62,562 nt of DNA from the UHGV virus genome UHGV-0106067. One strand, written 5' to 3'. How positions within the stretch are numbered: the stretch's first letter is position 1; each line of letters starts with the position of its first letter. Position numbers: made by a program. Of this stretch, positions 24,001 to 27,000 are shown one piece after another. The stretch comes from a virus.

Positions 24001-27000
24001 ATTGATGGCGGAGAGGAGGAAAATGATGCGCTTCTGAATGAGTGGCCTCACGGAAAACTAGCTGGCGTTCCAGTGTGGCACATGAATGAAAGTGACGAGC
24101 GATTTATTCATTTGTGCAATGAGTTTCCGCGAGTGGCTATCGGTAGTTGTGGCGACTATGACGTAAAGCGCCCAACTCTTGCGGTAGCCAGAATGAAAGA
24201 CCTGATTCGTCACATTGTTGATGGGCATGGTCAGCCGGTTACGAAACTACATGGATTGCGCATGTTAAATCCGCTGATATTCACAAAATTACCCTTAGCC
24301 AGCGCAGATAGTACGAACGTCGCTCGAAACATCGGTATTGATAAAGCCTGGTCTGGGGCTTATGCACCTGCAAGTAAAGAGACACGCGCAGCATTAATGG
24401 TAGAACGGATTGAGGCACACAATAGCCCTGGTTCTCTTGCGTATTGTGAACAACGCGACCGCTTTGAAATGCAATTGCAACTAGCAGTTTAAGGACTAAC
24501 AAATGACCACTATTACTAAAGAACGTATTGAATTGTTCATTAAAAATCAGCTTGAAAACGGGCTTACTCGTAGCGAACAAATGGAAGTGGCACGGATTGC
24601 TTTGGCATCGCTGGAAGCAGAACCTGTAAGCCAAACTTACAAGTTGAACGAGCTATCTGGCAACTCTCCGGTAACTCCGGATGGTTGGATAAGCTGTAGT
24701 GAGCGAATGCCGAACGATAAACAGTATGTTTGGTGTTGGGGTAAGTCTTACGGCTGGACTGAGTGCGATACCTTCGAAGGGTATTACGATTGGTCGAGAA
24801 ACAAATGGTGGGCAGTTACTGACAATGGGGAAGAACCGGCATCGAAAGTAACCCACTGGATGCCGCTACCAGAACCTCCGCAGGAGGTTAACCGTGGCTA
24901 ACCTGCAACTTGCCGTCAAAGGTGAATACTTCGATGCCATGATTCGCGGGGAGAAAACGGAAGAGTATCGCTTGTGTAATGACTACTGGAATAAGCGAAT
25001 CATGTTCCGGGAATATGACCGCCTGATTATCACAAAGGGATATCCGAAGCGCGACGATTCCAGCCGCAGAATTGATATTCCGTATGGCGGATATGAAATC
25101 AAGACAATCACACATCCGCACTTCGGTGATAAACCGGTAAAGGTATACGCGATAAAGGTAAATATTGATGGCTAAATCAGCAGCAGAGCGCAACTAACAA
25201 TCCTCGCACTCGCGGGGATTTCTTTTATGCGAACTCGCTACGGCGAGCTTGAGAGGTTAACACGATGAAAAATAATATAATGAAAAATGGAACTATCGAC
25301 AGCCAGGCTCTGTTGAAAATGGTGAATGAAGCGCGGAGACTGTGCGGTGAAAAAGAAGTACGCAACAACGACTTCATTGCACGCATCAAAGATGAACTTG
25401 AGGGGGAGGGTTACGAAAATTTCGTAACCCCCATGGATAAGAAAAAAGGTGGTGCGGATCAGGTTGTTATTGTGATGACCTATAAACAAGCGCTTCGGGT
25501 TGCCGCTCGTGAATCTAAATCCGTCCGTCGTTCGCTGGTCGATCAACTGGAGTCAATGCAACAGCAACTGCAACAAAAAACCACCACGAAACATTCGACT
25601 AACGGCCTTGAGGAATTCCGCAAAGCGCGGGCGCTGAAAATGACCGTCGATACAATGAAAGACCTTTTCGGATTCCTCCCCAACCTTGCCCCTGAAGCCA
25701 AACAGGTCGTTGCCGCCAGCCTGGTTAATCCCGTTGTAGGCGCTAACGTAATCCCGCTACCGATGATCAATGAACATTACTATTCGGCGTCAGAAGTTGG
25801 AGTGCAACTCAAAATATCCGCTAACAAGGTTGGTCGCATTGCCAATACCTACATGCTCAAAACAGAACAATACGGGAAATGGTTCATCGACAAATCCCCG
25901 CACTCGGATAAGCAGGTAGAAACCTTTCGCTATAATAATCGGGGAGTACAGAAGATCGAAGAAATCCTGGAGGCGGAGAACAACGCAGAGTTTGGAACAT
26001 GACATCCCCGTCGTGAATGACGGGGGGGAGGCTTACTGTGTGTCGGAGTAGTATTTACGTGTTCAGAAAAGAGATTCATATAGAGGCTGAATCTGATCTT
26101 TTTTGGTCACATCTGGCTTCCACCATTGCAGGCAGAGTGAAGGCGTAGACTAAAAACATTTCGGTAAAACTCAGTATCTGGCTTGCCTCAATTGGTGTGA
26201 ATACTTCATCTGTATGAACTGCTTTATTGGCATCTATTCGTACAATATGAGCCCATTCCTTCATCTGTTCAGTGATCAGGCCTTTTTTGTAAATCATCTG
26301 AATACGTTGCGACAGAGATTCTTTTCCTGCTTCATCGCCGAGCAGTTTTTTCGTTGAGATATCGAGGACTCTGCGACAAAGAATAACCACTGTGTCGTAC
26401 CGCCTCCTCTGTAAATCCTCTTTTGCCTCAACAAAAGTACGGTCTGCAACCGGGGGCGTATATTCTGGTGCGGTAATTTTTTTGACCGCAGGATAGATCT
26501 TGCGGAAACGGTACTGGCTATTTCCTGAAATCAGAATATCAAGGTCTTTTTTCTGGCTTTCCGCCATAGGGCCGTGATAGTGGTCTGATGGGATTTCAAC
26601 AATAGCAACACCTCCTTGATGACAACTTCTGCATACAAAAGCGACGTTAAAAAGAGGTGTTTTTTCAATTTGTTTTTCGGCAAATGCCTCAATAACAGCT
26701 CGCTCTTTTAAACAGTGCGGGCATGTAATGTCAAAGGAGACTAAACCCATGGATATTCCTCGCGAAATTAAAGAAATTAACGAAATCATTGAGGTTACTG
26801 ATCGCCCCGAGTTTACCCTCATGTGGCGCTATGAAACAGGAACCGACGAGCAAAAATACATCATGGTTGCAGCATTGGCTGTGATGGCGATAGAAAGGGA
26901 GCGGATGGAAAGGAACGTAATAGTTATTCCTGAGAGAAATGATTCACCGGATCTGAGATGGCAGGGGCCGGAGTGGATGTGGCAATCCGGTGATGATATT

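Follow-up and report, generated by a model that had tools for sequence, protein, structure and literature searches.

The virus genome UHGV-0106067, a stretch of 62,562 nucleotides (nt) that is referred to below as the window, is of the lambdoid, Stx-phage-like, Sepvirinae type, and carries on its minus strand, in the region beside its excisionase and integrase genes, a gene whose product combines an N-terminal zinc ribbon with a DUF4145/HEPN domain (Table 1). We propose that this gene, which we call the RAZR-like gene, is probably a lysogenic-conversion defense gene encoding a divergent zinc-finger/HEPN abortive-infection RNase of the RAZR (PD-T7-4) kind, where the assignment to defense draws on homology and genomic context. 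Its start codon overlaps that of a small divergent open reading frame (ORF), which is a conserved partner and not a mere neighbor, and the two genes move together as a unit of ~1 kilobase (kb).

PD-T7-4 was discovered by Vassallo et al. in 2022 (PMC9519451), and was renamed RAZR, for ring-activated zinc-finger RNase, in a study of the protein from E. coli UMB1727 (PDB 9y9c; Zhang et al., Nature 2026, PMC13017515). RAZR begins with a Cys4 zinc-finger domain, which a conserved linker joins to a DUF4145 domain that is a divergent HEPN RNase with the residue pair R146/H154, and the substitutions R146A and H154A abolish defense; no other part of the protein varies as much as the zinc finger, which determines specificity (PMC13017515). 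The protein is inactive until a phage trigger appears, with activation involving the assembly of 24 copies around rings of a phage recombinase-like protein or portal, and it brings about abortive infection through non-specific cleavage of single-stranded RNA, for which a single gene suffices (PMC13017515).

The initial annotation of this stretch had described an opposite-strand gene with a C-x2-C...C-x2-C ribbon preceding a DUF4145 domain, and both domains are borne out by our analysis. In a hidden Markov model search, residues 118–197 match Pfam DUF4145 (PF13643; HEPN clan CL0291) with an E value of 3.4e-9 and 37.1 bits, as compared to a cut-off of 23.1 bits, and the protein as a whole matches PHROG 1305 (E 1.6e-62). 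An AlphaFold2 model built on the alignment of homologues, which is confident (predicted local distance difference test, pLDDT, 89.6), shows a four-stranded beta ribbon with strands at residues 4–8, 18–27, 33–40 and 46–52 and the two cysteine pairs at its turns, a short helix-strand element in the insert that follows, and a helical domain spanning residues 100–222 that has the HEPN fold (Foldseek: 2hsb, probability 1.0). Across 33 homologues with 37–69% identity to the window protein, the two pairs C10-x2-C13 and C40-x2-C43 are invariant, as are the linker prolines P87, P95 and P99, and R171, N175 and H179 of the predicted catalytic motif. Mean pairwise identity is 0.43 in the zinc ribbon, 0.24 in the insert, 0.45 in the linker and 0.66 in the HEPN domain, and the median ratio of nonsynonymous to synonymous substitution rates (dN/dS) among relatives is 0.14, indicating purifying selection. 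The zinc ribbon gives weak profile matches to RPB9/TFIIS-type ribbons (E 0.26–1.3), among them 1qyp, the ribbon that the authors of the RAZR study used for comparison (PMC13017515). We note that DUF4145 was placed in the HEPN superfamily in 2013, when its zinc-ribbon fusions and its occurrence in double-stranded DNA viruses were already remarked upon; the tie between DUF4145 and restriction or Abi proteins, from which the initial annotation had argued, is likewise correct (PMC3710099), though less specific than the link to RAZR.

This link is seen at several levels of comparison. Among PDB sequences, the single window protein matches the RAZR chain 9y9c and no other, and the motif RIDANKAVH aligns residue by residue with RIVGNQAVH of RAZR, such that R171 and H179 correspond to R146 and H154. 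With the family profile, the match to 9y9c extends over profile positions 85–182 against RAZR 66–159 (E 0.11), the linker part being 85–99 against 66–79, and when the two families are compared by hhalign, residues 95–209 align with RAZR residues 77–189 (95.8%, E 7.9e-9, 25% identity). Pairwise BLASTP of the window protein against RAZR gives an E value of 1e-5. The full-length RAZR-Ec sequence was rebuilt from overlapping database fragments, as a 94-aa (amino acid) piece of RAZR had returned only short or truncated forms; the rebuilt sequence fits the numbering of the published protein (AGN 68–70, R146, H154), and is matched by the PD-T7-4 model over its full length with E 1.3e-102 and 339.7 bits. 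The top defense match of the window protein in PADLOC is also PD-T7-4 (16.2 bits, E 1.4e-3, partial), and the same model is the best defense-database match, albeit a weak one, for 19 of 33 family members (best E 2.8e-7).

RAZR and the window protein have in common the order of Cys4 zinc ribbon and DUF4145/HEPN domain, with what may be a corresponding proline-rich linker between them, as well as the R-x3-N-x3-H spacing, and at the level of the families they share a zinc-finger end that is the most variable part and carriage on mobile elements. They are also similar in size, with RAZR having ~211 aa by the published numbering and the 211-position PADLOC profile, or 219 aa in the rebuilt sequence and PDB chain, and the window protein 224 aa. 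In contrast to RAZR, the window family has the extra helix-strand insert (residues 56–86), and is found inside prophage operons on the opposite strand, usually with a divergent small partner gene, whereas RAZR-proper loci, of which few were looked at, lie beside integrases without such a partner. In our reading, the window protein would thus be of the same broad kind as RAZR and would work like it, while falling outside the PD-T7-4 family as now modeled. Separately, we observed that many database entries for RAZR-proper (PD-T7-4) are only 139–160 aa long and lack the zinc finger (proteins P0084–P0140; loci L135–L139), and that some of these short genes either directly adjoin an integrase gene at its 3' end or overlap that end; these short forms could be truncated remnants, the result of miscalled starts, or a real form without a zinc finger.

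The start of the reading frame at ATG 26750 agrees with homologues, RefSeq phage records and PGAP annotations. The longest ORF, a 248-aa reading from 26822, was rejected, as its extension is not conserved and homologues begin with MG or MA. As the initial annotation had stated, the gene runs convergently to the early-left operon, has its own Shine-Dalgarno (SD) sequence, and shares a start-codon overlap with a divergent ORF of 93 aa. Motifs of the GGAG/AGGA type stand at the position equivalent to this SD sequence in 31 distinct junctions, and on the complementary side a GAGGA-type motif is kept in other junctions at the place of the partner SD sequence; the ribosome-binding site of each gene thus lies inside the first codons of the opposite gene.

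This arrangement is maintained over a wide range of phages. The CATG overlap is found at 62 of the 65 loci where both genes are present and in 28 of 31 distinct junction sequences, the same 2-nt overlap of starts recurs in Klebsiella, Citrobacter and Paraburkholderia prophages, and the head-to-head pair is kept in five different prophage positions from Enterobacterales to Paraburkholderia, that is, across two bacterial orders. Over this range, the identity of the partner to the window copies falls to ~17–25%, and the RNase of the Paraburkholderia pair (protein P0082) is 36% identical to the window protein. When viral contigs were searched in the reverse direction with the partner profile, the RNase gene was directly adjacent at all 27 loci found, and an RNase gene or a remnant of one adjoins 33 of the 34 loci reached via the partner's own sequence. 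The iterated partner profile also picked up a few ORFs antisense to the RNase N-terminus, which we judged to be artifacts of over-long ORF calls and re-trimmed to the junction start.

The partner family is tiny, with 38 cluster representatives in 1.84 billion proteins, and its members, of 48–131 aa (mostly 55–75 aa), show no fusion to known domains, the exception being three long multi-stretch matches. Its conserved core of ~55 aa comprises residues 1–56 (26749–26916), with the consensus ...DRPEFTLMQRYE..QK..FV.ALIGKLIEQDR.L., within which P20, E21, L24, I48 and E49 are invariant in two alignments (A3 and A4). The AlphaFold2 model of the partner has three helices (residues 3–16, 20–30 and 33–56) with pLDDT >90, followed by a C-terminal tail that is predicted to be disordered and occurs only in the E. 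coli lineage. The median dN/dS of 0.39, in which this variable tail is included, indicates purifying selection here also. The partner always runs along the surrounding phage operon, and is often tightly packed against the next gene. We found no description of such a conserved head-to-head partner in the literature searched.

To place the pair in its genomic context, 92 loci were compared after gene calling and clustering, made up of the window, 12 loci from genomes and 79 of 80 viral contigs that had been retrieved, with the main flanking clusters identified by means of PHROGs (NinB, O-like initiator, DnaB, DnaC, Ren-like, Rz, endolysin and the terminase subunits). Every informative locus belongs to a prophage or a phage contig, and at 87 of the 92 the RNase gene stands on the strand opposite to most or all large neighbors. 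The loci fall into two groups. All members of the first (group A, 65 loci including the window) have the partner ORF; 49 of them lie between replication genes and ninB, with the remaining sites being beside lysis genes, beside int, between lysis genes and terminase in Klebsiella prophages, and between an Enc34-type single-stranded DNA-binding protein and DNA polymerase A in Citrobacter prophages. The second (group B, 27 loci) encodes proteins of 212 aa, with 43–44% identity, between Rz and the small terminase subunit. At group B loci (L005, L012, L079 and others) we also observed that the RNase gene starts ~35 nt from the divergent terS start, and due to this short gap the RNase promoter must lie inside terS.

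Cargo is known to occur in the interval that separates the replication genes from ninB, in that separating the lysis genes from terminase, and beside int, and this context supports a role as a defense moron. As for the site of the gene in the window, which the initial annotation had described as a cargo hotspot next to int/xis, Stx2a phages with 98% identity over int/xis (98.9% over window positions 27084–28820) lose homology between 25882 and 27084, from which it follows that the region beside these genes is variable. Furthermore, the gene is dispensable, is missing from closely related phages, and is rare in E. coli, where 36 of 5,426 complete genomes carry the whole cassette, and it therefore behaves as a moron. 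The candidate defense moron of the initial annotation is in this way supported, and made more precise by the RAZR architecture and the prophage context, as a proposal that draws on homology and context. Other conflict genes occur in the moron regions of the prophages surveyed, namely Acb2/Tad1-hairpin genes, which are anti-CBASS/Thoeris sponges, in Klebsiella prophages (L122 2786–3070, L125 2777–3070), and a CAP12-PCTIR TIR-domain gene in a prophage of the Citrobacter type (L131 7313–8074). A literature search on phage PhiR12_3, whose close relationship to the window is described below, and on zinc-ribbon HEPN systems of prophages, returned nothing specific.

The two genes travel together as a mobile cassette. 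A copy with 96.2% identity lies in the nin region of Shigella phage 75/02 Stx, where homology is confined to window positions 26055–27046 and does not extend into the sequence on either side, and the cassette is missing from Stx2a phages that have the flanks in common with the window.

Several points nevertheless weigh against our assignment. The PD-T7-4 model that gives RAZR 340 bits gives the window protein 16 bits, and recognition at the family level fails. The zinc finger was not aligned with that of RAZR by either hhalign or BLASTP, where the RAZR-side profile held only three zinc-finger sequences; the window protein may therefore respond to another trigger than RAZR and assemble around rings in another way, if at all, and it is on this account that we describe the window protein as a divergent variant. 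Promoter scans upstream of the RAZR-like gene yielded no sigma-70 promoter that was convincing or positionally conserved, and expression in the lysogen is thus assumed. With regard to the partner, no Pfam, NCBIfam or structural match was obtained, no group B locus has a partner ORF, which means that the partner is not obligatory, and orphan partners exist where the RNase gene has been replaced or has decayed. The one candidate promoter in the window, at 27262..27233 (−), lies outside the mobile cassette.

The orphans and the partnerless group bear on the alternative that defense is the work of a single gene, with the small ORF being a linked passenger, either an ordinary phage gene or a hotspot flank that promotes cassette exchange by recombination. 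This would fit with the fact that RAZR functions as a single gene (PMC13017515), as well as with the existence of the 212-aa clade without a partner. Among 48 matching E. coli genomes, 12 match in the small-ORF part only, and in the two of these that were looked at (L133 and L134) the neighboring genes are different and the breakpoint falls exactly at the start codon. One remote partner homologue adjoins a Panacea-domain module, with no DUF4145 gene there. However, a passenger would not be expected to keep its head-to-head CATG geometry in five prophage positions from Enterobacterales to Paraburkholderia despite the divergence in sequence, nor to belong to so small a family with an RNase gene or remnant adjacent at all but one of the 34 loci noted above, the further exceptions being the E. 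coli genomes with the small ORF only. In addition, a close relative (L143) has a 59-aa DUF4145 remnant beside its partner homologue, with an Ail/Lom gene also adjoining, and this remnant points to orphans as the outcome of an RNase gene being lost or replaced, and not of independence of the partner. We thus consider a linked passenger to be possible, if on the whole doubtful.

The orphan loci hold further genes that deserve mention in their own right. In the prophages of E. coli ST866 and 2013C-3033 (L133 3182–4000, L134 3181–4000), a 166-aa hypothetical protein takes the place of the RNase gene, together with an unannotated minus-strand ORF of ~57 aa that has a strong GGAGG site (MDKKLNQARWNFHYE...); in both, the partner ORF remains, with a GTG start, and TumE-family or RelE/HigA modules come after it. 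These genes look like alternative cargo at the same hotspot. The remote partner homologues (L142 1895–3213, L143 533–3207) lie downstream of SocA_Panacea-domain genes, which are probable PanA-type antitoxin modules.

A second alternative is that the pair is a toxin-antitoxin addiction module that stabilizes the prophage, with the HEPN RNase as toxin and the small protein as antitoxin, and with no part in defense against phages. A small conserved partner gene is indeed present, the cassette adjoins RelE/HigA-type modules in both 75/02 Stx and PhiR12_3, and orphan partners persist as orphan antitoxins do. We nevertheless regard such a module as unlikely, as the genes diverge with overlapping starts and are not co-transcribed in the manner of type II modules, and as the 27 loci with an intact RNase gene and no partner would be lethal in the case of a constitutive toxin. 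Moreover, the usual antitoxin of HEPN toxins is an MNT nucleotidyltransferase, which the partner, a divergently oriented protein with a predicted three-helix fold and no Pfam or fold match, is not, and RAZR, the nearest relative of the RNase, is inactive until a phage trigger appears. Finally, a role in the phage's own development, be it as a DNA-binding regulator or as an RNase that takes part in the takeover of the host or the processing of RNA in lytic growth, is highly improbable: while RefSeq phage records and PHROG 1305 carry the label "DNA binding protein" and zinc ribbons often bind nucleic acids, we found no experimental basis for this annotation, lytic transcription would oppose expression of a gene that is opposite to lytic operons at 87 of 92 loci, the gene is dispensable (being absent from closely related phages, and present in 36 of 5,426 complete E. 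coli genomes), and the invariant R/N/H motif points to catalysis and not only to binding.

Returning to an abortive-infection RNase of the RAZR kind, we envisage that the protein would be made at a low level in the lysogen and would be inactive there. Upon superinfection, the variable zinc-ribbon domain would bind an oligomeric protein of the incoming phage, and this binding would position the DUF4145/HEPN domains such that R171 and H179 form composite active sites; the resulting non-specific cutting of single-stranded RNA would stop translation, and the infected cell would release no phage.

The partner may come into play upon induction. Because it runs with the phage operon, lytic transcripts would traverse the RNase gene in the antisense direction before they extend into the partner, and in lambdoid phages they would continue from there into the downstream nin and Q genes. 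Furthermore, because each ribosome-binding site lies inside the other gene, any transcripts that overlap at their 5' ends would anneal, and both starts would be blocked. Opposite expression states could result, with the RNase on and the partner off in the lysogen, and with an antisense transcript and the partner on after induction, such that the partner would be made in the prophage's own lytic growth and would shield the phage against the RNase it carries, in the way that Ren shields lambda against Rex. This self-protective role is the least secure step of our explanation. Taken in its full form, in which the partner is a natural inhibitor of RAZR-type RNases that is made only in the phage's own lytic growth, and in which the shared CATG could act as a two-state switch, it is a speculative suggestion that we think rather more apt to fail than to hold.

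There would be a reason for such self-protection. Annealing proteins of the RecT-like class and phage portals can form rings, and since the phage encodes a RecT-like protein, it would produce candidate members of the class of structure that triggers RAZR. The RecT-like protein (17717..18736), which forms part of a RecT-like/exonuclease recombination pair (17717–19431, +), is a candidate self-trigger if the window RNase senses rings as RAZR does. In the case of RAZR, self-damage was argued to be avoided as the host makes no such rings (PMC13017515). A RAZR-like gene in a prophage would break this argument, in that an induced prophage makes both a portal ring and a RecT-like annealing protein, and one has to ask by what means the phage would withstand a weapon that it carries itself, to which the conserved partner is an obvious candidate answer. 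If the partner is an inhibitor, it would be the first anti-RAZR protein, a new counter-defense protein, and a tool for studying RAZR-type activation, and it would explain how a phage with its own portal ring, and maybe RecT-like rings, can carry a ring sensor. In addition, the zinc finger of the family would be a sensor distinct from that of RAZR, and a comparison of the two bears on the generality of ring sensing in proteins of this kind, and as the cassette is found in Stx-type phages of E. coli and Shigella, it could shape which phages infect those lysogens.

Table 1. Coordinates of the RAZR-like gene, its divergent partner, and adjoining features in the window
Feature	Position	Strand	Remarks
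RAZR-like gene	26076..26750	−	224 aa plus stop; zinc-finger domain, variable insert, linker, DUF4145/HEPN domain
Cys4 zinc-ribbon domain, residues 1–55	26586..26750	−	N-terminal
Cysteine codons	C10 26721–26723; C13 26712–26714; C40 26631–26633; C43 26622–26624	−	
Variable insert (residues 56–86) and proline-rich linker (residues 87–99)	26454..26585	−	
DUF4145/HEPN domain, residues 100–212	26115..26453	−	
Predicted catalytic motif R171-IDA-N175-KAV-H179 (R-x7-H)	26214..26240	−	
SD sequence GAGGAA of RAZR-like gene	26756..26761	−	5 nt before ATG; within partner codons 3–5
CATG with both start codons	26748..26751		2-nt overlap of the divergent genes; read from the sequence
Partner ORF	26749..27030	+	93 aa plus stop; PHROG 8371, E 9.4e-48
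SD sequence AAGGAG of partner ORF	26734..26739	+	9 nt upstream; within RAZR-like gene codons 4–6
Mobile two-gene cassette, ~1 kb	26055..27046	both	96.2% identical to nin region of 75/02 Stx
Roi/antirepressor-like gene	25265..26002	+	tail-to-tail with RAZR-like gene; member of early-left block
Excisionase-like helix-turn-helix gene (xis)	27278..27445		just beyond partner ORF
Tyrosine integrase (int)	27429..28673	−	

Turning to the remainder of the phage, the best relatives of the window are Escherichia phage PhiR12_3 (from strain ECOR13) and the Shigella phages 75/02 Stx and POCJ13, with many Stx2a phages among the best relatives over int/xis. The plus-strand block at ~12.3–27.4 kb is the early-left side, with a cI-like repressor, the RecT-like annealing protein, the exonuclease and accessory genes. 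Within it, genes for a PAPS-reductase-like protein and a queuine tRNA-ribosyltransferase-like protein (PHROG 887, DpdA-type), at 21946–22824 (+) and 23695–24492 (+), together suggest a DNA modification of the 7-deazaguanine type, by which restriction would be countered. A GC-rich hairpin (CCCCGTC-GTGAAT-GACGGGG, ~26004–26030), with no T-run on either strand, separates the Roi-like gene from the cassette and ends just short of the cassette boundary. The window also encodes a 653-aa DNA methyltransferase (4366–6327, −; PHROG 13671), and a giant ORF of 2,783 aa that adjoins int (28940–37291, −) and matches PHROG 616, of unknown function, over its full length. Residues 2344–2671 of the latter resemble DarB-like antirestriction proteins, and an HExxH-like motif, HEWFH, is present; its product may be an injected multi-domain anti-defense protein.

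Comparison with known systems helps to place the pair. Of these, DS-38, a validated E. coli defense protein that contains a zinc finger as well as a HEPN domain, is close by description: only its HEPN domain aligns with PD-T7-4, and its trigger and ring-assembly mechanism may, according to its authors, differ from those of RAZR (DefensePredictor preprint, 10.1101/2025.01.08.631726). The window family is alike, in a comparison made by description only, in that its HEPN domain aligns with PD-T7-4 and its zinc finger does not. The strains used in that work were mostly ECOR strains (10.1101/2025.01.08.631726), and PhiR12_3, the prophage of ECOR13, encodes a protein that is 99.6% identical to the window protein. 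On this match of descriptions, the window family may be the DS-38 family, and hence possibly already validated.

The HEPN-MNT toxin-antitoxin systems of type II/VII (e.g., 5yep and 7ae2) differ in that they form an operon with an MNT nucleotidyltransferase, whereas the window pair is divergent and without MNT, and in that the window protein, unlike these toxins, has an N-terminal zinc-ribbon domain as its putative sensor.

With respect to its arrangement within the phage, the pair is reminiscent of the Rex/Ren system of lambda. The lambda rexAB genes are expressed in the lysogen and exclude other phages, and ren, a gene of the nin region located between P and ninB, enables lambda to evade Rex. 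Here, too, a prophage abortive-infection function would be accompanied by a small lytic-operon gene, the partner, whose hypothetical role would be protection of the phage that carries it. The position of lambda ren, between the replication genes and ninB, is moreover the site of most cassettes of the window family, and in 75/02 Stx the cassette adjoins a Ren-like gene. In contrast to lambda Rex/Ren, to which there is no sequence relationship, the two genes are here coupled head to head.

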